Virus genome (UHGV): UHGV-0049545 | DNA from: a virus | Strand: one strand, 5' to 3' | Length of the DNA stretch: 59,013 nucleotides | Shown: piece by piece, positions 758 to 54,794 of the stretch | How positions within the stretch are numbered: the first letter of the stretch is position 1 | Layout: each line of letters opens with the position of its first letter | The notes under the pieces: model-generated | Databases searched by the model: none | What the model saw: only the letters and a program-made list of their open reading frames with translations | What the model was told of the DNA's origin: nothing | Made by a program: the position numbers and the translations under genes

Positions 758-1135
758 ATGAACGACGCGATTATCCTGGATGACCTGACGCCGGCCATGA
801 TGACCATGGAGACGGACGTGGAACTGCCGTCAGGTATCCGGGCTAACAGTATCACTGGCAACCTGATCGGCCTCAAGCCGGGCGAGGTCTACGTTTATGC
901 GCAGGAGCTGGACAGCAGCAAGGCGCTGGTAGACCTGCAGACCGAAGCCACGGCGCTGCGCTACAAAATGCGTAACGGCGTGTCGTCTTCCCTGCGTAAC
1001 GCCAAACGGGCCTGCAATAGTCAGTTCTCACTGGAAACGGCGCTGGTCATGTACCCGTCGGGCCGTGCGTTTATCCAGGTGGCGATCAAGCGCGTTGATG
1101 ACGGCGCCGGCACCCCGGAAGACGACGAAGTTTAA
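758..1135 (+). CDS. hypothetical early protein, C-terminus ...PEDDEV
   Basis: First ORF downstream of P1; acidic C-terminal tail. Confidence 0.55.
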   Translation: MNDAIILDDLTPAMMTMETDVELPSGIRANSITGNLIGLKPGEVYVYAQELDSSKALVDLQTEATALRYKMRNGVSSSLRNAKRACNSQFSLETALVMYPSGRAFIQVAIKRVDDGAGTPEDDEV

Positions 1136-2594: not shown

Positions 2595-2923
2595 ATACCG
2601 AATTACTGCAGGCGTACGCGAAGACCCGCGCTGACCGTCTCGACCAGGTGCGCAGTAAGATCGCCATCCTGAACAACATTATCGCCGACATCGAGGATGA
2701 AGCGACCCGGGTGTATACCGAAGTCCTCGGCAACACGATGGTCGACCCTGACGCTGACGAAGGCGCCTTTGTCAAGGTCGATAAAGAGTATGCCGAAATG
2801 GCGGCAGACCTGCGTAGCGCCCGGGAGACGAACCGTGTGCTGCTGGCCCATCTAACCGCCGCCCTTGTGCGTGCGCCATTCCTGAATCTGTTTGCAAACG
2901 GAGATACCCCCAATGAAAGTTAA
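2591..2923 (+). CDS. hypothetical coiled-coil protein
   Basis: ATGA overlap with the upstream gene. Confidence 0.45.
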   Translation: MNTELLQAYAKTRADRLDQVRSKIAILNNIIADIEDEATRVYTEVLGNTMVDPDADEGAFVKVDKEYAEMAADLRSARETNRVLLAHLTAALVRAPFLNLFANGDTPNES

Positions 2924-3983
2924 AGGCTTTGAGAAAGTCATTATTCTGCATCTCGGCGCGCTCTTTGGCGCCGCAAACGCTGGCGAGAAGTCGGTAAAGA
3001 GCTTCCACCGCACGCTGCTGAACACGCCGAACATGGATGAAATGTCGGTCCATGAATTCGCCGCCGGCCGCGTGAGCGATCTGCTGGCGAAGCACGAAGT
3101 GAAAGACCCGATCGGCTATAAGACGATTGGCTTTGCGCCGTACGCGGACTATGTGGGCGGCAAGTTCGCCATGGGTATCCCCGGCACTAACGCGATCGTG
3201 CTGCAGGCCGAAAAGCGTGAACGCGTGCTGCCCGGCGTCAGCGTGCGCAACGAAGTGACGAAGCGTATGGACACCTGGCGCGAGAAAGAGATCGAAGGCT
3301 GGGAGCCGACCCGGAAAGACTGGGCGCAGCTGAAAGACGATGTCGAAGCCGAAATGCTGAAAACCGCGCCTATCCGCCCGACCCGCTACAACGTGATCAT
3401 CGCCGTCCCGTACGTCTATGTGTTCACCACCAGCGCCAAGACCTCCGAAGAGATCAACTCCCTGCTGCGTGCCGCATTCGGCACCTGGCCCGTGGAACCC
3501 CTGCTGATCAATGACTTCGTGCTGCGTCAGTCAATGGAGAAGGTCGTACGCGGCAACATCGATGGTGTCACCGGCGACGACTTCATCCACATCAAGCACG
3601 ATGACGGCGACGACGTGAAGTTCAAGGACATTGACATCCACAAGGACGAAGTGGTCCTCGACTACCTGGCGCGGCATTACACGGTTCGGGCGCTGAACAT
3701 GCGGATCGACGAAGGCGAGATGCGCCCGGGCGTGGGCAACGTGTTCTTCCGCCTGACCGACAAGGCGATCATCTCCGGGATCCACATCGGCGAGGCGGAC
3801 GTTGACGCCAACTATGAAGCCACCCTGGAACGCTACAACAATGACAGCGGCACGTTCCTGACCTACATGGCCAACCTGTTCCAGACGGTGCTGTCGCTGC
3901 AGGACGTCATTGACGTCTTTCGCGATAAGATGGACATCACGGTTGAGGTCGACGCGCAGCTGGAAGACGACGACGAGGTGTGA
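2913..3983 (+). CDS. rdgC: RdgC-like recombination-associated protein, C-terminus ...LEDDDEV
   Basis: The central region aligns by eye with E. coli RdgC: ...EKRERVLPG..., ...LKDDVEAEMLKTAPIRPTRYNVIIAVPYVYVFTTSAKTSEEINSLLRAAFGTWPVEPL versus RdgC ...[60 protein letters not shown]. ATG 2913 behind GGAGA. Confidence 0.55.
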   Translation: MKVKGFEKVIILHLGALFGAANAGEKSVKSFHRTLLNTPNMDEMSVHEFAAGRVSDLLAKHEVKDPIGYKTIGFAPYADYVGGKFAMGIPGTNAIVLQAEKRERVLPGVSVRNEVTKRMDTWREKEIEGWEPTRKDWAQLKDDVEAEMLKTAPIRPTRYNVIIAVPYVYVFTTSAKTSEEINSLLRAAFGTWPVEPLLINDFVLRQSMEKVVRGNIDGVTGDDFIHIKHDDGDDVKFKDIDIHKDEVVLDYLARHYTVRALNMRIDEGEMRPGVGNVFFRLTDKAIISGIHIGEADVDANYEATLERYNNDSGTFLTYMANLFQTVLSLQDVIDVFRDKMDITVEVDAQLEDDDEV

Positions 3984-40117: not shown

Positions 40118-42189
40118 GCTAACATTTCGGCCAGTTGCGCAAAACTATAACCTGTATCTGGTTTTTCTGCGATGGCCTCCTGTTTATCTATTGTGACCAC
40201 CAGCGGGTTTTTATCCCACTCGTCCGCCCAGACGGGCGGGTTATCCCAGTCTATTGCTTCCATCGCGAGGACACGCCCGCTGATACACATCCCGATCAGA
40301 TAGTAACTCAAGTCCCACGTTTCATTTCGGGTACCCTGCGGGCATTGCCAGCCTTTTTCGTCGCGATGCTCGGCGCACATCTCGCCATACGCGTAGTCCG
40401 GAAGCCACGTAGGGAAATGATACATGCCTTTTCCGGGAACCGTTACATCCAGTCGGCCGTTAAGCATGTCTTTCACCATATTCGAGTTTATCATCAGCAC
40501 CGGGACGTCGCCGCGCGCGATCGCGTTTTTGTCCTTCCGGTTAGAATCCGGCGTCGCGATATGGGTACGCGGGCTTTTCGGCATCGGGTCGCCTTTGACC
40601 AGAATGAATCGCCCGTTTTTCCCCTCGCGGCGCAGCTTACGATAATACTCGTACGCATTGGCCGTTACGCCTGCTGCACCGCCGGAGTCACAGGCTGTCA
40701 TCTTGACCTGCATCACGCGACTAGGGTCATCGGCCAGCGGATAGGTCTTCATCATGACCTGCTTCTCGATCAAATCCCAGTCCTCCAGGTACGCCGCCGG
40801 GCTTAACTTCTCCCGCTCGCCGTCTATATCGAGACGTTCGGATTTGATGATGTTGAACCGGTCAATCAGGTAAATATCGAACGGGTACCCCGGCGCCACG
40901 CCGAATACGGCCACTTCAAAGCGGTGTTTCTGGACGTCCACCGTCGCCGCCAGGAAACGCACGGCGGGTGGTACTGTTTTTTCCGCCCACGGCTCGGCCC
41001 GCGCTTTCAACATTTCCGGAACACGAACCGACTCGATCGACTTCGGCACATAGGGTTCGCCCATGTCGTTGTTCCAGAATTTTTTCAGTGACTCTTCCGA
41101 CATCGTGCGCTCATAGTCGTCGGACGCATCGAGGTAGTTCAGCACCAGCGTCTGCCATGAGATAAACGCCGCCGCCGTTCCGCGTAGCCAGAAGGACGCG
41201 AATGTCGCCCGAAGCGGCTCGCCGACCAGTTGCCCTTTCTCGTTTACCGTACATCCTTCCGGTACCCACATGCCCCACAAATTCATCTCGTACTTCTCTT
41301 CCGGCGCGATTTCGCAGCCGCAGCATGGGCAGACCATTCGGGCCGTTTCTGCTTTTTCCAGGTTCGTGAGCGTTCGCCCATCTGCGGACTTGGTGTCCCA
41401 CTTCATCAGCTGGAACGTTCCTTCGAAATACTGGTCGCAATGGGGGCATGGCCATTTCCAGCGCCGGCGGTCGCCGCGGTTGTAAAGTCCGACGATGCCG
41501 TCGCACGGCGGCGCTTCATGCGGCGTTTTCTTGATCCAGTTTGGGTCTTTTACCGGGCGGGACGGCGACGATTCTGCCGCGCACATGGCAAACGACCCGA
41601 AGGTCGTTGTACGTTTTGACGCGAGGTCAAAGGCGTTACCATCACCGCCGATGTCATCGTCTATACGGTCATAGTCGGTGATGATAATACGGCCCACTGG
41701 CCTCCCCGCCAGTTCCGTAACCGATGGGTAACTAAGCGTCAGGATGATCCCGGTGGTGTAGTGTTTGTCGAATTTGTTATCGGCATCACGGTTCTTCATC
41801 AGCATGGCGCCCACTTCCGGACTGTGCCGGTGGAGTCGGTCCACGCGTCGCATGGAGAAGTCGCGTGCGGCGGTAGAAGTCGGGCAGAACACCATGATAT
41901 CCATGGGATCCACTTTCACCGAATAGGTAATGCCGTTGAGGATCAGCGCATCCGTTTTCCCGCTCTGCGCCGGGCCGACAAACGCCATTTTGTTGTAGTG
42001 GCGGCTGTTCAGCGTGTTCATCGGCTCGACCATGTATGGTGTGGTCATGTTGAGCCAAGGCCCGACATATGCGCCGGGCTGGTTCACGTAACGGTATTTG
42101 GCGGCCGCCTCGGCGACCGTCATGCGCATTGGCGGCCGCAGCTGGCTGGCGACCGACCGGATGATGTGGTTTAACGATTTAAACTTCAT
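40114..42189 (-). CDS. terminase large subunit (lambda gpA-like)
   Basis: ATG 42189 behind GGAGGAAG; size and order. Confidence 0.75.
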   Translation of the reverse strand: MKFKSLNHIIRSVASQLRPPMRMTVAEAAAKYRYVNQPGAYVGPWLNMTTPYMVEPMNTLNSRHYNKMAFVGPAQSGKTDALILNGITYSVKVDPMDIMVFCPTSTAARDFSMRRVDRLHRHSPEVGAMLMKNRDADNKFDKHYTTGIILTLSYPSVTELAGRPVGRIIITDYDRIDDDIGGDGNAFDLASKRTTTFGSFAMCAAESSPSRPVKDPNWIKKTPHEAPPCDGIVGLYNRGDRRRWKWPCPHCDQYFEGTFQLMKWDTKSADGRTLTNLEKAETARMVCPCCGCEIAPEEKYEMNLWGMWVPEGCTVNEKGQLVGEPLRATFASFWLRGTAAAFISWQTLVLNYLDASDDYERTMSEESLKKFWNNDMGEPYVPKSIESVRVPEMLKARAEPWAEKTVPPAVRFLAATVDVQKHRFEVAVFGVAPGYPFDIYLIDRFNIIKSERLDIDGEREKLSPAAYLEDWDLIEKQVMMKTYPLADDPSRVMQVKMTACDSGGAAGVTANAYEYYRKLRREGKNGRFILVKGDPMPKSPRTHIATPDSNRKDKNAIARGDVPVLMINSNMVKDMLNGRLDVTVPGKGMYHFPTWLPDYAYGEMCAEHRDEKGWQCPQGTRNETWDLSYYLIGMCISGRVLAMEAIDWDNPPVWADEWDKNPLVVTIDKQEAIAEKPDTGYSFAQLAEMLA

Positions 42190-42748
42190 CGTCTTCTTCC
42201 TCCGCGAACCGTCTTTCCAGGGTATTCGCGAGGTCATCCAGTATTGAATCCACCGATGACTGCACCACGTTGCGCTGCGCTTCGGTAAGCCCTACCTGCC
42301 GCGATAATGTGTCGGGGATCAGCAGCAGACTCATTCGCAGCGTTTTGATTGCTTCGCCGAATACGCTGACCACGTCTTCCGTTGGCCACAGGTTCCCTGC
42401 GCGCAGGTCATACTCCTGCTTCGCGCGCTGGCCGTTCCAGAACTCCTTCGACAGCTCTTTGGGCAGGTCTTTGAAGTTCATGCGGCGCAAATACGTCTCG
42501 ACGTCGTACAGTGGTTTCACCAGGTACGGCGCGACTTCGTGGACCGCGTAAATTGGGTACCCGCCGCGCTCCCCGACGGGTGGGATATCCATGATCTTCG
42601 GTGTGATGTCCCGGCGCTCCATGCGGAACAGCTTCGCCAGTTGCGTTATGTTGCACCCCTGAAAAATCATCGCCTCGGTATCAGCGTCCGGCGCATTCGA
42701 TCGCCGATTGCGGGTCGCCAGCGGGGCGGTCTTAGTCGTCTTCGTCAT
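42179..42748 (-). CDS. terminase small subunit (Nu1-like HTH), C-terminus ...EEEDDEV
   Basis: N-terminal ...CNITQLAKLFRMERRDITP... HTH; position. Confidence 0.5.
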   Translation of the reverse strand: MTKTTKTAPLATRNRRSNAPDADTEAMIFQGCNITQLAKLFRMERRDITPKIMDIPPVGERGGYPIYAVHEVAPYLVKPLYDVETYLRRMNFKDLPKELSKEFWNGQRAKQEYDLRAGNLWPTEDVVSVFGEAIKTLRMSLLLIPDTLSRQVGLTEAQRNVVQSSVDSILDDLANTLERRFAEEEDDEV

Positions 42749-44303
42749 CCCATAGCTCCGTTTTCTTAGCCTTCATGCGCTTAGTTATGCGGCCTTTGAT
42801 GCGGTTTAGCAAATCAAAAAAAGCATCTTGCACATCACCCTTAGTATTTAGCGCTTCGATGACGGTGCCGTCGACAGTGTCGATCAGCTCCTTGGTTTTC
42901 GGATGGCGGATCATCGCTTTCATCTGGTAAACCGTTACCGGGTGCTTCTGGCCCTGACGCGCCAGGCGGCCATTGAATTGCAGAAACCGTTCAAGCGACC
43001 ACGGGTTATCGACGTATACGATGATGTGACCACCGTGCTGCAGGTTAAGTCCATGGCCGGCGGACTGTGGGTGCGCCGCCAGTAGCTTTATCTTTCCGGC
43101 ATTCCACTTCTTAATCGCCTTGCCGTCATCATCCATGACGACCAGACCCCTTTTCCCGAACCGCTCCTGCAGGCGGGCCAGGGTCGGCTTAAAGTGATAG
43201 GCCAGGAAGACGTTTTCCCCCTCCAGGGTGCTGTCAAGTAACTCTTCCAGCGCATCGAATTTCAGGTCGTGAATTCGATAAGCATCTTTCTGCTTCACCA
43301 CTTTGTCGTCACTGGTGATCCCGACGATTTTGGTGTCGTAGATAAATCCGGACGCCAGCTGCAGCAACTTGTCCTGCAGGGCCGCCGCCTGCTCGGCTTC
43401 AATCGTCACCGGGTCATCCAGATATTCGTCGAATTCGTCGGGCATGATTTCGACAAGGGATTCTTCTTCCATCTGGCGGTACAGGTCCGCGGAATGCGGG
43501 TCTAGTTCTACCGGTAGCGGTACCAGCGTTGGCTTTTCGACGTCAAGATAATCTTCCGCCTTCATCACCATGACGATGTCGGAGATTTTGCGGATGATTT
43601 CTTCCTCGGCACCATTGCGTAACTTGAACTTGAAATTGTACTTGTTTTGGATGAAATAGTTTTCCTGATACCCGGTGATCGTGGTGCCAAAGCGCTCGCC
43701 TTCGTCCAGCAGGTACGTCTGCGCGAAAATGCCCATGTACCCTTCGGCGGCAGGGGTGGCAGTCAGCTCCACCAGGTAGTTTATGTACGGCCGGCAGCGG
43801 CGTAGCAGCTTGAACCGTTGCGAGGTATGCGACTTGAACATGCTGGACTCGTCCAGGATAACCATGTCGTATGGCCATTTCTTTTTGAACAGTGTACACA
43901 GCCACGCGAGGTTATCCACGCTCACCGTGTAGAAATGGCAGTCCTCGCGTGCGGCGCGCTCGCGTTGTGCTGCATCGCCATCGATGACCGATATCTTCCA
44001 GAAACAGAGGTGCCCCCATTCCTCGAATTCGCTTGGCCAGCCCACTTTCGCAACGCGCTTTGGCCCGACGATCAGCACTTTGTTAACTTTCCCGTCGACG
44101 ATACGGTCCAGTGCGGCAGTGGCGGCCATCACGGTCTTGCCCAGTCCAAGGTCGACGAACAGGCCACAGAACGGCGTGTCTTTGATGAAGTCGACGCCGT
44201 CGTCCTGATAGCCGTGCATGTCCGACCGCTGGTGAATCACGTTGCGCTGGCAATACGCGATTGCCTTACTCAAAGGCGATAAGGTAGTTCTTAAAGTCTT
44301 CAA
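42732..44303 (-). CDS. SNF2/DEAD-family helicase, C-terminus ...WDDEDD
   Basis: Walker A DLGLGKT, DESS box. Confidence 0.75.
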   Translation of the reverse strand: MKTLRTTLSPLSKAIAYCQRNVIHQRSDMHGYQDDGVDFIKDTPFCGLFVDLGLGKTVMAATAALDRIVDGKVNKVLIVGPKRVAKVGWPSEFEEWGHLCFWKISVIDGDAAQRERAAREDCHFYTVSVDNLAWLCTLFKKKWPYDMVILDESSMFKSHTSQRFKLLRRCRPYINYLVELTATPAAEGYMGIFAQTYLLDEGERFGTTITGYQENYFIQNKYNFKFKLRNGAEEEIIRKISDIVMVMKAEDYLDVEKPTLVPLPVELDPHSADLYRQMEEESLVEIMPDEFDEYLDDPVTIEAEQAAALQDKLLQLASGFIYDTKIVGITSDDKVVKQKDAYRIHDLKFDALEELLDSTLEGENVFLAYHFKPTLARLQERFGKRGLVVMDDDGKAIKKWNAGKIKLLAAHPQSAGHGLNLQHGGHIIVYVDNPWSLERFLQFNGRLARQGQKHPVTVYQMKAMIRHPKTKELIDTVDGTVIEALNTKGDVQDAFFDLLNRIKGRITKRMKAKKTELWDDEDD

Positions 44304-47140: not shown

Positions 47141-47206
47141 GGTGTCCTCTTATGAGAAAGCCCGCACTAGGCGGGCTTCCGGTTTCAATGCCCGACGGGC
47201 TGGGGG

Positions 47207-47827
47207 TTAAACGTCGTCGTCTTCATCGCCGGCGTCGTCGTCTTCCCAGTCTTCGTCGTCATCCCACGCGTCGGAGGTATCAACACGACCTTCGCCGAAC
47301 GGTTCGTCATCTTTACGCTTCAAAACGGAGATCAGGTTAGCGTTTACGCGTTTGCCGTATTTGTTATCCTGGGTCCAGGGTCGGATAACCATGGACACCC
47401 AGCAACCGCCGTAAATCTCTTCTTCAATCTCAGCCTTAGTCGTTAATTCCTCGCGCTCGATGTTAAAGACTTCGGGCTTTTTGCTTTCGCGCGCAGAGAG
47501 AACCCACATGCCAGCGCATTCCGGTTTGTCCGGGAAATCAACATCGCCGTCTTTCAGGAACAACATGGCCGGCGCCACTTTGAGCGGACCAGCTTTGTGG
47601 TTCTTTTTGGCGACTTCGATCTGCTCTTTCAGCAGCTGGTAAATCTCTTTGTGCGTTTTCTTCGGCAAAAGCCCGACGATACCGTATTTCGGCTCGCCTT
47701 CGCCGTCTCCGCCGTATGGGGCGCCCAGGTGCGGATATGAAGCGCGTACGTTGGAAACTTTGATGTGACCGCTCTTATACAGAACGCCGTTTTTAACTTT
47801 CTTCGCAGGAACTAATTTTTCAGCCAT
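47207..47827 (-). CDS. DUF2815-family single-stranded DNA-binding protein, C-terminus ...DDAGDEDDDV
   Basis: OB-fold family that co-occurs with DUF2800 and PolA. Confidence 0.6.
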   Translation of the reverse strand: MAEKLVPAKKVKNGVLYKSGHIKVSNVRASYPHLGAPYGGDGEGEPKYGIVGLLPKKTHKEIYQLLKEQIEVAKKNHKAGPLKVAPAMLFLKDGDVDFPDKPECAGMWVLSARESKKPEVFNIEREELTTKAEIEEEIYGGCWVSMVIRPWTQDNKYGKRVNANLISVLKRKDDEPFGEGRVDTSDAWDDDEDWEDDDAGDEDDDV

Positions 47828-47841
47828 TTCTCTACTCCGGG

Positions 47842-47877
47842 TTACGAATTTACGGGTTTACCATCTTACCGATTTAC
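47842..47877 (-). repeat. Five TTAC tetranucleotides at exactly 8-bp phase (47842, 47850, 47858, 47866, 47874); in the mRNA, GUAA(A)xxxx x5 immediately 5' of the SD/ATG of the SSB-like gene
   Basis: Read directly. Confidence 0.8.
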
Positions 47878-49223
47878 ACTTCATCGTCGTCATCTTCGTC
47901 GTCATAGGCGCCGGAATATTTCTGATCCAGTGGTGGCCGCTTATCAGTCAGCGGTACCAGGGTCGGCTTACCTTCCGGCTTCCATACGACGCTTTCGATG
48001 ACCATTGGCGCGCCGGCGCGTGACAGTCCAAGTTTATCCCGAAGGACTTCTTCCATCTGCGCCGGCGAGCGCAATTCCGTTTTCATATAGTCTTTTTCGT
48101 CAAGGCCAAGGAAATCATACAGCTCCCTGGCCTTTTCGACATTGGTATGTGCACGGTTAGAGCGTGATTCCACCAGCTTATGCCCGGGAACCGGCTTACC
48201 GTCTTTCGCGGCCCGCTCCAGCTCCAGGTCCAGGCGGGCGAACCAGTTTTCAATCACTTTGCGGTAAGGCAGTATCTTGGCCATCTCGGCAACGGACAGA
48301 TCGCCGAACTTCGCCTTCCGCATTTTGTATTCGTCCGCCAGGGCGGCGCGTAACTGCGACATCTCATAGTCTCCGAATTCAGTGTCCAGGAATTCGAGGT
48401 CGGCACCGACGGCGCATTCCATCATGTACGCCACAGCTGCGCAATTATGCGCGGCCCGGCACCACCGGCACCCTTTCAGCGTCGCCTTGCGTTTGGCTTT
48501 GAGTGACCAGGCGGCCGCTGCACGCTCGCGGATGAACTCGGCGAAGTCAAGCAATTCGTCGACCGTCACTTCCCAAACGTCGAAATGCTCAAGCCTCGGT
48601 TGTGCGATCCGGATGATGACCCGGTCAAACTCGTACTCATCGCTGAATGCGCGGTACGCCCCGTATGCATAGAGCAACGCCTGGGGGTTGCCTTCCGCGA
48701 AAACCTGGACGCCGGTTCCGTATTTCAGGTCGGTAACAATCAGCACTCGATCGCGAATGATGATGTTATCCGCGGTACCGCCCTGCGGGAGAAACGGCAC
48801 TACTTCGGCATCCGGGTCTTCCTCCAGCTCGTCAGCGTTGGCCGGCGGCATCAGGTCTGTGAACCAGACCCGGATTTCCGTCAGCATCATGCCTTCTTCG
48901 AACCGACACCAGTCAACATAATCCTGAACATAGTCGATCATGGAGCGGGTGACGACAATCTCATGCCGAACGCCTTTTTCCTCGACGACCTGCGTAGTTC
49001 CGATAAGATGCGTCGGTCGGATGTCCGTTTTCAGCCACTGCTCGGCGATGCCATGGGCGACGGTTCCTTCCGCCGCTTCATAGCTGCACTCGTCCTCTTC
49101 GAAAAGGTTGGCCAGCAGACTTCCGCCGCAGGCCGTCCACATCGCAGAGGCAGACGGCGCGAAAATAGAATGTCCGCCGCCGGCAAACTCCTGCATAACA
49201 CGAACCAGGAAAGACTTACTCAT
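47874..49223 (-). CDS. PD-(D/E)XK nuclease, DUF2800/Cas4-like with C-terminal Cys cluster, C-terminus ...DDEDDDDEV
   Basis: ...CRWCRAAHNCAAV... four-Cys cluster. Confidence 0.65.
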   Translation of the reverse strand: MSKSFLVRVMQEFAGGGHSIFAPSASAMWTACGGSLLANLFEEDECSYEAAEGTVAHGIAEQWLKTDIRPTHLIGTTQVVEEKGVRHEIVVTRSMIDYVQDYVDWCRFEEGMMLTEIRVWFTDLMPPANADELEEDPDAEVVPFLPQGGTADNIIIRDRVLIVTDLKYGTGVQVFAEGNPQALLYAYGAYRAFSDEYEFDRVIIRIAQPRLEHFDVWEVTVDELLDFAEFIRERAAAAWSLKAKRKATLKGCRWCRAAHNCAAVAYMMECAVGADLEFLDTEFGDYEMSQLRAALADEYKMRKAKFGDLSVAEMAKILPYRKVIENWFARLDLELERAAKDGKPVPGHKLVESRSNRAHTNVEKARELYDFLGLDEKDYMKTELRSPAQMEEVLRDKLGLSRAGAPMVIESVVWKPEGKPTLVPLTDKRPPLDQKYSGAYDDEDDDDEV

Positions 49224-49620: not shown

Positions 49621-50013
49621 TTAAACGTCGTCTTCTTCGGAGTTGCCTTCGTCCTCTTCCGGTTCGGCCAGTTTGGCTTCACACAGGTCAAAGATCGCGT
49701 CGAAGTGTTCTTCTTTCGCTTCGGCGATTTTGGCCAGGCCGAATTTCGCGGTGATCTTTTTGGCTTCCGGGGCGCCAAAGCGGTCTTTCACCGCTACAAC
49801 CGCAGCGACTACTTCGTCTTTGGTGTGTTTCGGCTTGTCTGCCGCAGCAGTGGATTTGCCTTTGGCGGTGGTTTTACCTTTGGCGGTGGTCTTACCGGCG
49901 CCAGCGTCTTCACCTGCTGCAGCGGAAGAAGCGCCGCCATTAGCCAGCAGCTGTTCCAGCAGGGAGTTGGTTTTTTGTTGTTCGGCCAGCAGCTGTTCAA
50001 AAATACCTGACAT
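49621..50013 (-). CDS. hypothetical low-complexity K/A/T-rich protein with tandem KTTAKG repeats, C-terminus ...EEDDV
   Basis: ORF. Confidence 0.45.
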   Translation of the reverse strand: MSGIFEQLLAEQQKTNSLLEQLLANGGASSAAAGEDAGAGKTTAKGKTTAKGKSTAAADKPKHTKDEVVAAVVAVKDRFGAPEAKKITAKFGLAKIAEAKEEHFDAIFDLCEAKLAEPEEDEGNSEEDDV

Positions 50014-50047: not shown

Positions 50048-50094
50048 GTGTTGACGGTTTGGAGTATGGCCATTGCTGCATCGCGTGTCAACAC
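50048..50094. promoter_or_regulatory. Inverted repeat GTGTTGAC...GTCAACAC (31-bp spacer) in the divergent 49621/50243 control region; candidate operator. A TTGACAC... -35 reads on the minus strand at 50094-50088.
   Basis: Read directly. Confidence 0.45.
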
Positions 50095-50242: not shown

Positions 50243-50524
50243 ATGAAATTTCCACCGTGGGCTATTAAAGACCACTCCCTGAGACCGCGTTACCTCGCTG
50301 GTATCGCTGCCCTGGAGGTAGACCCGGACGGCAACCTTACCAAACTGGCGAAGGCGGCTGGCGTAAATTACGACACTATGATCTGGAATATCCGCAACAC
50401 CGTTTCCGGGCAGATGGCCGTCAAAATTTGTGAGGCCGCTAAAACTTCTGGCATCCGACCACATTGGTTCACTAACCCGGACTGGATAAAAATCGACCCG
50501 GATACAGGGGAAATTCTTGAATGA
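50243..50524 (+). CDS. putative HTH DNA-binding regulator (Cro/YdaS-like, 93 aa)
   Basis: ...DGNLTKLAKAAGVNYDTMIWNIRN... HTH; ATG 50243 behind GAGGACC. Confidence 0.45.
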   Translation: MKFPPWAIKDHSLRPRYLAGIAALEVDPDGNLTKLAKAAGVNYDTMIWNIRNTVSGQMAVKICEAAKTSGIRPHWFTNPDWIKIDPDTGEILE

Positions 50525-53109
50525 ACTACTGGAACGAATACGGAATAGCGCTGTGGGAAAACGGCTTCACCGTCGTTCCCATCATTCCGCCTGACTCGCC
50601 CAGGCCAAAAGCAGGAAAACGGCCTGCGTTCGAAGACTGGCAGAAAATCGAGAACACCCGTGGCCAGATTAACGGTTTCGCGAAGAAATACGCGTCATCC
50701 GGCATCGGCATCCTGACCAAGCACACCCCGGCGGTAGACATTGACGTCTACGACAAAGACGGGGTTAAGCACATGATGGCCATTGTCGAAAAGAAAATCG
50801 GCGCCGGCCCGGTTCGTGTTGGCCGTCAACCTAAAAAACTGGTGCTTTGCCATACCGACGAGCCGTTCAAAAAGGTCAAGTCCGCCACCTGGGAAGATGA
50901 CTTCGGCCAGCGCCATGCCGTCGAAATCCTCGGTGATGGCCAGCAGTTCGTCGCCTTCGGTATACACCCGGATACGCGCAAGGAATACACATGGATCACC
51001 GATGATACCCCTGTGAACTGCGCGGCCGCCATGGACCTGCCTGAAATCACGCTGGAGATCGCCCGCGATATCGCCGATGCGTTCGACGCCTATGCCGAAA
51101 AACAGGGATGGATGAAAGTCGCACGGGCCATTAACGGACGGGCGGCGGAAGGCGAAGCGGACGATGACGACTGGGCGGCAATGGCCACCGTCACCAAGTG
51201 GGACGGCACCTACGACGAGCTGCGCGATATCGTCATGAAATACCCTGACCCGGAGAACTATGAAAACTGGATCCGGGTAATGGCAGCGCTGCAGGTGTCA
51301 TGCCGCGATCAGGATGAAGCGAAAGAGATCGCCCGCGACTGGTCCATGCAGGCGGATAACTATGACGAGTCGGAATTCGAGTACAAGTGGGAAAAAGGCT
51401 TCACCCATGATGCCCAGACGCTGGTGACAATCGGCACCATCATCAAAACGGTCCACGAAATCGAAGAGAAGGAAGCCCGGGAACAGGTTTCCGAGTTCAC
51501 CGAGGCATTCAACGAAGTCACCACCATGGCGGACTGGAAAGCCTGGGCAGACGACTTCCGTAAGCTGCGGGTTTTCGGCATTGAGCGCCAGCCGACTATT
51601 GACGCGGCCAAGAAAGCCTACAAACGCCTGAACGAAAGCGCGCTGACCAACAAAGCCGTTAAAGAGTACCTCAGTTTCGACTTTTCCCGTGCGGATACAC
51701 CTAACTGGCTGAAAGAATACGTTTTTGCACAGGCCCAGGACGCCTTTGTCAGCCGGAAAACCGGGGTTTTACTGTCAAAAGGCGCCTTCGATTCGTCCCA
51801 TGGGCGTGATATCGGCGACGTGGAAGGCGGTTTATCACCGAATAAGTTCGCCACGGACGTCGTAAAAATCCCGATTATTCACGACGTTATGTACTATCCG
51901 GAGATGCATGGCGGCATGCAGGAGACGAAATGGACGCAAAAAGAAGGTCTTTTGGGGCCGGAATTCTTCTATGACGACTCCGGATTGCTACGTTTGAACA
52001 CGTTTTCGCCTGAAAGCATCCCAAAAGCAGCGGAAAAACTGTCAAAACTGGACAAAAAAGCCATTTCTATCGTCAAAGACCTCTTTATCGTGCTGTTTCC
52101 TGACACGAAAGAGCGGACGTACGTCATGGACTGGCTGGCGCACATCGTCCAGCACCCGACAAAGCGCATCAACTATTCGCTGCTCATCCGCGGGGCGCAC
52201 GGTTCGGGTAAATCCACGATCGGGGTGCTTATGCGCGAAATGCTGGGGGCGCAGAACATCGGGTACGTCTCTAACTCCGTGATGAATGGCCGTTTCACCG
52301 ACTGGGCGGAAGGCCACATCCTGAAAATCGTGGAAGAGGTGTATGACAAAGGCGATCGGTACAGCGCCGTCGATAAGCAGAAGGAATTTATCTCGAACGA
52401 CCGCTTCCAGGTGGAAGGGAAAGGCGTCAAGCCGCGTGACGTGGTGAATACCAGCTCGAAATTAATGTTCACCAACCACATCAACGCGCTGCCGCTGGAC
52501 GAGAACCAGCGCCGCTACCTGGTCGTCTCCACGCAGGCAGAAAACCATCTCGATATGGACCGCGTTTACGGGTCGGCAAAGGAACGCGAGAAGTTCTTCT
52601 CTAACGTCTATAGGGCTATCGAAAATCACGGTCCTGCCATTAAGAAATGGTTCCTCGAATGGGAGATCTCCCCGGACTTCAACCATAAGGGCCATGCCCC
52701 GCAGGACACCCGTGCTTTCCAGGTAATGATGGAGGCTTCCAGCGACGGCGTCGGCGAGATGTTAGCCACCATGATCAGGGAGAACGAGACACTGGGCGTG
52801 TGCAAAGACATTATTTTCTCGCCCGCTTTAAAGGACGCTTTTATGGAGATGCCGGACGTCGAAATGCCGAAGACGAACCGACTAAAAAACCTCCTCCTGG
52901 ACCTCGGTTTTGAGCCGGGTGGACTGCTAAAAATCGATGGCGTTACCGGCCGGTGCTTCACCAGAAGAAACGTGAGAGCGGCAAAAGGTGAAGACGGAAA
53001 GCTAAACACTGAATGGGCGCGGAAAACGCTAAACGCCCACAATGAACTTGTTGAATCGAAAATCGGGAAACACAAAACCGCGTTCGATGATGAAGACGAT
53101 GAGGTTTGA
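50521..53109 (+). CDS. primase-helicase: N-terminal bifunctional prim-pol domain plus D5-like P-loop helicase (GAHGSGKST), C-terminus ...DDEDDEV
   Basis: Domain motifs read directly; 862 aa. Confidence 0.8.
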   Translation: MNYWNEYGIALWENGFTVVPIIPPDSPRPKAGKRPAFEDWQKIENTRGQINGFAKKYASSGIGILTKHTPAVDIDVYDKDGVKHMMAIVEKKIGAGPVRVGRQPKKLVLCHTDEPFKKVKSATWEDDFGQRHAVEILGDGQQFVAFGIHPDTRKEYTWITDDTPVNCAAAMDLPEITLEIARDIADAFDAYAEKQGWMKVARAINGRAAEGEADDDDWAAMATVTKWDGTYDELRDIVMKYPDPENYENWIRVMAALQVSCRDQDEAKEIARDWSMQADNYDESEFEYKWEKGFTHDAQTLVTIGTIIKTVHEIEEKEAREQVSEFTEAFNEVTTMADWKAWADDFRKLRVFGIERQPTIDAAKKAYKRLNESALTNKAVKEYLSFDFSRADTPNWLKEYVFAQAQDAFVSRKTGVLLSKGAFDSSHGRDIGDVEGGLSPNKFATDVVKIPIIHDVMYYPEMHGGMQETKWTQKEGLLGPEFFYDDSGLLRLNTFSPESIPKAAEKLSKLDKKAISIVKDLFIVLFPDTKERTYVMDWLAHIVQHPTKRINYSLLIRGAHGSGKSTIGVLMREMLGAQNIGYVSNSVMNGRFTDWAEGHILKIVEEVYDKGDRYSAVDKQKEFISNDRFQVEGKGVKPRDVVNTSSKLMFTNHINALPLDENQRRYLVVSTQAENHLDMDRVYGSAKEREKFFSNVYRAIENHGPAIKKWFLEWEISPDFNHKGHAPQDTRAFQVMMEASSDGVGEMLATMIRENETLGVCKDIIFSPALKDAFMEMPDVEMPKTNRLKNLLLDLGFEPGGLLKIDGVTGRCFTRRNVRAAKGEDGKLNTEWARKTLNAHNELVESKIGKHKTAFDDEDDEV

Positions 53110-53673: not shown

Positions 53674-53953
53674 GATAACCTCGGTGTTGTGATTCTTGGT
53701 CAAATTTTGGCACGATGTACAACACTTTTCAACCCTAAAAATGTTGACTTTTATGTACATTTCCGGCGTTTTTGTTGTAGGTCTTGGTCAAGGTAACAAT
53801 CCAACCTGACGGCAATACCATGTTATACAAAGGAAAATCACCAAAAAAAGTAACATAACAAACCGACCTTTACTCGGCGCCGTTATTATAAATAAATACA
53901 CACTCGTTCTTTGTGAATTTTATTCGACTTACTGTATATTATCCCTTTTATTT

Positions 53954-54052
53954 GTTACCTTTGTTACTTTAAGAGAATAACAGTAGAAGAAACAGTAAGA
54001 TAGCGAGGAAACAAAGTGGGTAACAAAGGCGGTAACGAAGATGCTCGTTACC
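53954..54052. repeat. Cluster of GTTACC/GGTAAC hexamers (53954, 53963, 54019, 54031, 54047) with AACAGTA(A/G) repeats, next to a very AT-rich stretch 53880-53950
   Basis: Read directly. Confidence 0.7.
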
Positions 54053-54794
54053 TGACAGCTGCATCAGCACTGGTCCGGCTGCACCAGAGCACCGCCCCAA
54101 AATGTAATGCAATCAATCGGTTGCGGGGCTAAAACGGCCTTTAGGGCACCACCCCTGGAACGCAAAATCACGTCTGCCCTACGGGCAAAACTCGAAAAAA
54201 CGCCTGTAAATCATGAATTTCCGAAGTGGGGCTATGGGGATTTCGCCGCATTTTCTTCCACCGCGGCTCTGCGCACCCCCGGCACACCGGACCCCCTCGG
54301 AAGTACCTTTTTGAATTCGATCCGGATTCCTTCTCCAGCGCCACGGAGACGGGCGCAGCCTCGATCATGGTACACCCCTACAGCATACCCCCACGATAGC
54401 CGCGCCTGACCCCCATAGCGGCGGCATAATCGGCATACCTCCACCCGGTCACACGGTCACATAGCCACCCCGACACAAAAACACCCCCGATCACTACGAT
54501 CAGCGGCCTCATTGAACCTGCATCATGTGCATTGATACGGTCACACCCGGACAGCGCCTATAACACCCGCCCCGTGTGCAATACAGCAAGACCACAGCAC
54601 GCTATAACACCCCCGCCACTATGCCGGGGTGCACCTATAACATGTGCAAATAAACGGGCTTTAAAACGCTGTGTAGGACGGCGTAAAGGGGGGAGTCTTT
54701 GCAACTGGTCGGGTGCAACTTCTTTTCATCCACTGGCCACGCCAGCGGCCTTAACGATGGTCCGCGATCCTTTGGTTCGGGTTTATCGCAGACG

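Follow-up and report, generated by a model that had tools for sequence, protein, structure and literature searches.

Autogenous translational control of a phage ssDNA-binding protein (SSB) is textbook material and, to our knowledge, is understood in detail essentially only for gp32 of phage T4, with the gene V protein of phage f1 as a case of cross-regulation. The gene V protein of f1/M13 is a phage SSB that acts as a translational repressor via leader RNA, and the way in which a sequence-independent SSB chooses its own mRNA is still debated. Regularly spaced short repeats in an mRNA leader are familiar from the Bacillus trp leader, in which phased (G/U)AG repeats are bound by TRAP, one per subunit, and the period mirrors the geometry of the protein. 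Furthermore, the gp2.5 family of phage SSBs is a widely used model SSB and recombineering/annealing protein.

In the operator of T4 gene 32, a pseudoknot precedes more than 40 nt of unstructured RNA that includes UUAAA/UAAA repeats and the ribosome-binding site, to which gp32 binds cooperatively (PMC535899). Repression of the gene II mRNA by the gene V protein of f1/M13 is mentioned in the same paper (PMC535899). SSBs of the gp2.5/Enc34 type are regarded as sequence-blind.

We analyzed a stretch of 59,013 nt (UHGV virus genome UHGV-0049545, hereafter, the window), which represents the nearly complete genome of a Klebsiella Chi-like siphovirus (family Casjensviridae). It shares 96-97% identity with phages Seifer, KPN N137, Soft and others, and its SSB has more distant homologues in Casjensviridae phages. 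In the leader of the SSB gene, TTAC starts on the plus strand at positions 47842, 47850, 47858, 47866 and 47874, and in the mRNA sense (minus strand) GUAA starts at 47877, 47869, 47861, 47853 and 47845, with a step of exactly 8 nt. Thus, the perfect 8-bp phase of the five TTAC motifs, which the first-pass annotation had pointed out, was confirmed by direct reading. The features of the locus are as follows.

47838..47877, minus strand: five phased octamers, from direct reading, with period 8 also found by Tandem Repeats Finder
47877-47870, minus strand: octamer 1, GUAAAUCG
47869-47862, minus strand: octamer 2, GUAAGAUG
47861-47854, minus strand: octamer 3, GUAAACCC
47853-47846, minus strand: octamer 4, GUAAAUUC
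47845-47838, minus strand: octamer 5, GUAACCCG
47874..47876, minus strand: UAA stop codon of the DUF2800 nuclease gene, within octamer 1 (GUG UAA), from direct reading
47835..47838, minus strand: Shine-Dalgarno (SD) sequence GGAG of the SSB gene, 7 nt 5' of the AUG, from direct reading
47825..47827, minus strand: AUG start codon of the SSB gene; the N-terminus MAEKLVPAKK aligns with Enc34 ORF6 (PDB 5ODJ) from residue 1
47207..47827, minus strand: SSB gene, 206 aa, PF10991 (Enc34_ssDNA-bd, formerly DUF2815), Pfam E = 7e-30
47874..49223, minus strand: DUF2800 (Cas4-like PD-(D/E)XK) exonuclease gene, 449 aa, Pfam PF10926, E = 5.8e-70
50063..50091, minus strand: sigma-70-like promoter match TTGACA-17-CATACT, a consensus match only
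47152..47178, minus strand: terminator-like hairpin AAGCCCGC-cuagu-GCGGGCUU, then UCUCAU, between the SSB stop and the start of the DNA polymerase gene

In the mRNA sense, the full leader reads GUG-UAA-AUCG GUAAGAUG GUAAACCC GUAAAUUC GUAACCCG-GAG-UAGAGAA-AUG. Octamer 5 is followed by GAGUAGAGAA and then by the AUG, and its last base is the first G of the SD sequence GGAG; in the relatives, the array likewise adjoins GAGG or GGAG. The distance from the nuclease stop (TAA, 47876-47874, minus strand) to the SSB ATG (47827-47825) is 46 nt, as previously noted, but the array does not fall entirely within this gap, as had been claimed, because the first GUAA lies partly outside it: its G is the last base of the final Val codon of the nuclease and its UAA is the stop codon. 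A stop codon is located within the first repeat also in the Chi-like, Enc34 and Providencia relatives.

When all 4-mers were scanned at periods of 5-15, the array was the only run of five, and also the only run of at least four, in the 59-kb window; the expected number of five-unit runs per window is 2.8e-4 (analytic), and none was obtained in 200 first-order Markov simulations. Tandem Repeats Finder placed the period-8 array at 47848-47877. No other 40-nt stretch with more than three GTAA was found on either strand of the 59-kb window and, therefore, the claim that no other region shows such periodicity holds, with the 4-mer scan and the GTAA count in agreement. A mini-ORF, AUG GUA AAC CCG UAA, in units 2-4 (47862-47876, minus strand) was considered and set aside: it is present only in the Klebsiella group, is not kept in the Chi-like relatives and is probably incidental.

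The SSB is a gp2.5-type OB-fold protein that ends in an acidic tail (..GDEDDDV). It is 78% identical to Enc34 ORF6 (5ODJ, E = 2.8e-103; 5ODK/5ODL, E = 3.9e-93), and in the alignment all the DNA-contact residues named for ORF6 (Y30, Y37, K46, R112, W150, N154 and Y156) are identical in the SSB of the window. At least eight proteins of the window share this type of acidic tail, most of them ending in V, including the nuclease, the SSB, the primase/helicase and the SNF2 helicase:

Acidic-tail genes: 47874-49223 (minus strand), 47207-47827 (minus), 50521-53109 (plus), 49621-50013 (minus), 42732-44303 (minus), 42179-42748 (minus), 2892-3983 (plus), 758-1135 (plus)
Tails: ..DDEDDDDEV, ..DEDDDV, ..FDDEDDEV, ..SEEDDV, ..WDDEDD, ..EEEDDEV, ..EDDDEV, ..PEDDEV

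By analogy, these tails look like a shared docking peptide for one hub; in T7, the acidic tails of gp2.5 and gp4 bind the polymerase.

In nearly all related loci, the nuclease gene directly precedes the SSB gene. The sigma-70-like match at 50063..50091 is the only promoter-like match upstream of the operon, and no promoter-like site was found between the nuclease and SSB genes; thus placed, a transcript likely starting at 50063..50091 would carry orf130, orf116, the nuclease gene, the array and the SSB gene. Downstream, E21, pAEv1812, FoX4, phiAxp-2, JS26 and Bacata have a hairpin with a T-run at the corresponding place after the SSB gene, the FoX4 copy being annotated as a terminator, which suggests attenuated read-through into the polymerase gene. 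With the promoter upstream of the operon and the hairpin after the SSB gene, the array would be an internal leader in a polycistronic mRNA, and the SSB gene would be the last highly expressed gene. Within orf130 (49621-50013, minus strand), whose small product is rich in lysine and alanine and matches no Pfam family, we observed an 18-nt tandem repeat (49850-49896, 2.6 copies) encoding repeated KGKTTA. Elsewhere in the window, after the primase gene, positions 53675-54100 form an AT-rich (GC ~0.44) non-coding region of ~400 bp with seven GGTAACAA-like boxes in both orientations, including three of the four exact copies in the window, and with a period-12 repeat at 54010-54040; this region may be the replication origin or the main regulatory region.

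For the comparative analysis, SSB-homologue loci were taken from viral contigs and GenBank phages and the sequence upstream of each SSB start was read, yielding 51 non-redundant leaders whose SSBs are 37-100% identical to the SSB of the window. Across the 51 leaders, lag-8 self-identity was 0.391 vs 0.267 in shuffles (z = 13.2) and lag-16 self-similarity reached z = 8.6, whereas the control leaders, those of other ORFs in the same loci, displayed only the codon period of 3. The 8-nt phasing is therefore kept in related phages, with lag-8 and lag-16 peaks over leaders of SSBs with identity down to 37%. An iterated position weight matrix (PWM) derived from these leaders yielded 148 units with the consensus GTAAACCG and the position frequencies G(.76) U(.78) A(.92) A(.96) A(.71) C(.54) C(.86) G(.57). 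The units are spaced by 8 nt in 51 cases, by 9 nt in 21 and by 7 nt in 13. GTAAA and CGTAA are ~20-fold enriched over the locus background, and TAAA/GTAAA are 9- to 20-fold enriched in the leaders of the family. The number of copies varies from 3 to at least 8 (L028, L054), and the arrays are found in phages of Klebsiella, Salmonella, Providencia, Proteus/Escherichia, Aeromonas, Pectobacterium, Xanthomonas, Achromobacter and Xylella. Leaders of these relatives read, in the mRNA sense:

Chi-like Salmonella phages: GUAAACCC GUAAAACC GUAGAAA GUAAACCC GUAAAACA GUAAACC GAGGA
Providencia phage PibeRecoleta: GUAAAACC GUAAAACAA GUAAUCCA GUAAAACC GUAAAUU GAGGA
SAP012-type (L028): at least eight GUAAAACM units
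L054: five perfect GUAACUCC units
Aeromonas phage pAEv1812: GUAACCAG GUAAUCCGU GUAAAACC GUAAACC
Pectobacterium phage MA12 (L038): CGAAACC / CGAAAACC units
Xylella phage Bacata: CGAA each 7-8 nt
Achromobacter phage phiAxp-2 and Xanthomonas phage FoX4: CCG(U)UAAA / CCGAAA units

What is conserved in the repeat is its pattern rather than its sequence. At least two units are present in about three quarters of the 51 leaders and at most one in 14 of the 51 (by PWM); the leader of JS26 is only 20 nt long, and Enc34's own array is degenerate. The array of the window has at least three G-U-A-A-A-C-C-G units with 7-9-nt spacing, in sense orientation and no more than 90 nt upstream of a PF10991 gene, and so fits the definition of the family. 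Among close Klebsiella relatives, one of the 46 sites of the leader is variable, compared with 25/300 at the 3' end of the nuclease gene and 17/300 at the 5' end of the SSB gene; this low variability of the leader reflects purifying selection. Other weak PWM chains in the window (53051, plus strand; 33732 and 30925, minus strand) are located in coding sequence, have low scores and were taken as chance.

The array is attached to the ribosome-binding site of the SSB gene. In three loci (L071, L083 and L095), other ORFs are inserted between the nuclease and SSB genes, and there the array is directly 5' of the SSB SD sequence, not after the nuclease stop. Chains of at least three units occur 39 times in SSB leaders vs once elsewhere in 550 kb, both strands included. 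The leader is unstructured, as the first-pass annotation had assumed (MFE z = +0.54 for the window; family mean z = +0.33, p = 0.03), and no significant structure was found in the 101 nt around it; with this fold score, a structured riboswitch or pseudoknot was ruled out. A known RNA family was ruled out as well, Rfam giving no match in the whole window at the gathering threshold and, at E <= 10, two implausible matches only for the locus. There is no GC-skew inflection or AT-rich stretch at 47.85 kb. Taken together, the attachment to the SSB ribosome-binding site, the low variability, the lack of structure and the lack of promoter, AT-rich or skew signals point to an RNA-level element that acts on the initiation of SSB translation. 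We conclude that the array is a genuine cis element, strongly conserved and not a product of chance.

The period of 7-9 nt together with the conserved core implies a periodic binder. In the crystal of Enc34 ORF6 with (dT)35, a monomer holds T1-T8 and the phosphate of T9, with base-specific hydrogen bonds at T3, T7 and T8, the sequence preference being undetermined according to the authors, whose model is a contiguous filament, with the DNA of one monomer meeting that of the next end to end (PMC5686142). The binding assays of ORF6 were with DNA only, 'RNA' occurring 0 times in the text (PMC5686142). For T7 gp2.5, a site size of 7-8 nt, a cooperativity of ~110 and sequence-dependent binding are given, and the Enc34 OB fold likewise occludes 7-8 nt (PMC10359462). 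The SSB encoded directly downstream, with its footprint of 7-8 nt, therefore covers a stretch as long as one period of the array. However, gp2.5 is reported to favour GC-rich ssDNA (PMC10359462), to which the A-rich motif is not an obvious fit, and this preference counts against the reading of the array as an operator. Further points against it are that part of the family has at most one unit, that T7-like gene 2.5 leaders have no conserved array and that the leader has neither a pseudoknot, which in T4 is the nucleation site, nor another nucleation structure. The excess lag-8 identity is 0.20 in leaders of SSBs with the ORF6-type long N-terminus (n = 35) vs 0.02 in those of short-N-terminus DUF2815 proteins (n = 54; p = 3e-8), so that period 8 is confined to the long-N-terminus SSBs, with the contrast being one between two clades and confounded by phylogeny. 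The neighbours found with the array in distant loci are the SSB, the nuclease and the polymerase (in most loci, not all), and neither orf116 nor orf130 was detected in the distant loci that keep the array. The most conserved PWM positions, A3, A4 and C7, share their cyclic spacing with the contacts T7, T8 and T3, but this match was not counted as evidence because the within-array profile is flatter (0.64-0.89) and a chance match is expected in about 1 case in 7.

We take the array to be an RNA element that acts in cis from the 5' leader of the SSB mRNA. On the comparative and structural-footprint evidence, from which we infer binding of the SSB to RNA and repression, we propose, with confidence that is about evenly balanced, that its most likely role is that of an autogenous translational operator. 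According to this proposal, once ssDNA is saturated, free SSB would build up, each monomer occluding 7-8 nt and binding cooperatively. One SSB monomer could then occupy each GUAAA(N)CC octamer of the unstructured leader, and the phased preferred sites would give the SSB mRNA an advantage over bulk RNA. The cooperative SSB lattice is predicted to spread across the adjoining SD sequence and AUG, blocking 30S binding, and when replication yields ssDNA, SSB would be drawn off and translation would resume. The unoccupied array may also serve as an unstructured enhancer, which is compatible with the operator role, and, more speculatively, termination of nuclease translation within the first unit could briefly clear the 5' end of the lattice. 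The T4 gp32-like translational operator suggested by the first-pass annotation thus stands in part, the phasing being conserved, the leader unstructured and the array specific to the SSB ribosome-binding site; the parallel fails at the pseudoknot, which is missing here. It is also possible, albeit a more tentative proposal, that gp2.5/Enc34-type SSBs read an RNA octamer, with one OB-fold monomer per GUAAACCG, the period copying the crystallographic footprint, and the copy number (3 to at least 8, changed by slippage) determining the set-point of the SSB.

An alternative that we consider unlikely, but that has to be taken into account, is a translational enhancer or standby site, in which A-rich, structure-free repeats recruit the 30S subunit (e.g., via S1) or keep the ribosome-binding site open, so that the SSB, needed stoichiometrically, is translated far above the nuclease encoded on the same mRNA. 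The leaders are indeed A-rich and slightly less structured than shuffles, direct repeats of a non-self-complementary unit cannot form hairpins, and the terminator-like hairpin after the SSB gene fits a last gene with high output. Such an enhancer, however, requires neither an 8-nt period nor a conserved G-U-A-A-A-C-C with C at position 7, we know of no S1 site with an 8-nt period, and no other gene of the window, the structural genes included, has an array. This function is compatible with an operator, and the leader of T4 gene 32 is both enhancer and operator. The array could also be a binding ladder for a different oligomerising protein, as the first-pass annotation allowed for, either an RNA-binding factor common to all the hosts or some other conserved replication protein of the phage, which appears distinctly unlikely. 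Oligomeric RNA binders, TRAP on (G/U)AG among them, typically recognise short repeats in phase, and that the SSB is the binder is something we infer. However, the array-carrying phages infect gamma- and beta-proteobacteria and Xanthomonadales, so that a host factor would need to be universal, and by inspection, the units are unlike the targets of Hfq (ARN triplets), CsrA (GGA in loops) and Rho (~12 nt spacing); RNase E sites were likewise rejected by inspection, as the units do not fit. Among the phage proteins, the absence of detectable orf116 and orf130 from distant array-bearing loci argues against these two, and a matching footprint is known only for the SSB.

A DNA-level element, be it origin iterons, a loading site for a primase or a helicase or a transcription-factor operator, is very unlikely, even though the replication module contains the array and origins typically have direct repeats. 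With a length of only 40 bp, the array occupies the space between the stop codon and the SD sequence and tracks the SSB SD sequence when the neighbours change. An 8-bp spacing sets successive sites on different faces of the duplex. Moreover, there is no promoter-like site nearby and no inflection of the GC skew at this position; the array is neither in an AT-rich non-coding region nor independent of the ribosome-binding site, whereas origin iterons would be expected to be both, with an unwinding element close by, and the region at 53675-54100 is a better candidate for an origin or regulatory region. Finally, it is hardly credible that the array is a stop-codon barrier, with UAA in all three frames ending the ribosomes that leave the nuclease frame, or a product of neutral replication slippage. 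The commonest variants, GUAAA, GUGAA, GUAGA and CUAAA, all keep a stop triplet, and the near-perfect arrays of L028 and L054 indicate recent slippage. Nevertheless, whole arrays consist of CGAAA, GGAAA or GCAAC units without stops (MA12 L038, L050 and Bacata), and a neutral origin fails to explain why the period, motif and position are kept down to 37% protein identity along with the low variability in close relatives.

No earlier description of the array was found in the literature, whether by topic or by the literal repeat sequence. If the proposed autogenous operator is real, SSB autoregulation would have evolved a second time, independently and with a different SSB fold; the circuit would be widespread in Casjensviridae-type phages and convergent with T4 gene 32, with a hairpin + UAAA variant in more distant DUF2815 phages. 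The recognition problem would apparently be solved by phasing a short preferred motif at the SSB's own site size rather than by a pseudoknot, and the system could reveal base-specific RNA/ssDNA preferences in the gp2.5 family. Because a 1.56-Å structure of a 78%-identical homologue with 8-9 nt exists, this hypothesis is directly testable. In practical terms, the array can guide annotation of the translation start of SSB genes across a large phage family, whose members include therapeutically interesting phages of Klebsiella and Salmonella, and it could become a compact, tunable part for translational control.

Compared with the known systems, the array shares most with the T4 gene 32 operator. 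Each occupies the 5' leader of the gene for a phage SSB, contiguous with the SD sequence and the AUG, and both comprise ~40 nt of unstructured RNA with repeated (U)UAAA-like motifs, here five GUAA(A) in 40 nt. In both, the repressor, proposed in the present case, is a cooperative, monomeric, lattice-forming SSB with a site of ~7-8 nt (PMC535899), and the logic, again as proposed here, would be the same, namely, that SSB free of ssDNA stops its own synthesis. In contrast to gene 32, however, the proteins belong to unrelated families (gp32 vs the gp2.5/PF10991 type), there is no 5' pseudoknot because the upstream sequence is the coding end of the nuclease gene, without a significant fold, and the octamers are strictly phased with a conserved ...CC(G) tail, whereas gene 32 has irregular UUAAA runs. 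The gene V operator of f1/M13 differs further in that it controls another gene (gene II) through a single G/U-rich site, with a protein of another family and no phased array. With TRAP, the array shares short phased repeats in an mRNA leader and the proposed binding of one subunit per repeat, but TRAP is a closed 11-mer ring, binds triplets 2-3 nt apart, is ligand-activated and acts on other genes, whereas the proposal here is that OB-fold monomers form an open lattice of 8-nt period and act on their own gene. The TAACTGA heptamer repeats of Beggiatoaceae and cyanobacteria, which are intergenic and present at ~169 loci genome-wide (PMC4679880), are also short tandem direct repeats upstream of genes with a suspected post-transcriptional role, but have a 7-nt unit of another sequence and are tied to no gene family or protein of known footprint.

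The leader of T7 gene 2.5 (L100 315-345, between promoter phi2.5 and gene 2.5) contains GAGAAACCAAACGAAACCUAAAGGAG, with two copies of GAAACC; these copies resemble the CGAAACC units of some Casjensviridae arrays. The array as a general feature of gp2.5 genes was rejected, as the T3-, K1F- and KP32-type relatives are without T7's GAAACC copies, and no conserved array was found in T7-like gene 2.5 leaders. Leaders of the short-N-terminus DUF2815 genes of metagenomic phages (L181-L260; 64 nt upstream) contain 2-5 (U/G)AAA motifs at 5-7-nt spacing that extend up to the SD sequence, with 2.68 such motifs per leader vs 0.28 in controls. They resemble the array in the protein family, the position and the A-rich composition, but differ in the spacing, which is not 8 nt, and in having no GUAAACCG octamer. 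Many of them have, by eye, a GC-rich hairpin upstream of the motifs, with no difference from controls in upstream folding energy (p = 0.17), and those with the hairpin have a layout even nearer to that of the T4 gene 32 operator. These observations suggest that UAAA-type leaders are general to this SSB family and that the octamer lattice is the Casjensviridae version. By analogy, the array would work like the operator of T4 gene 32, yet outside that family.
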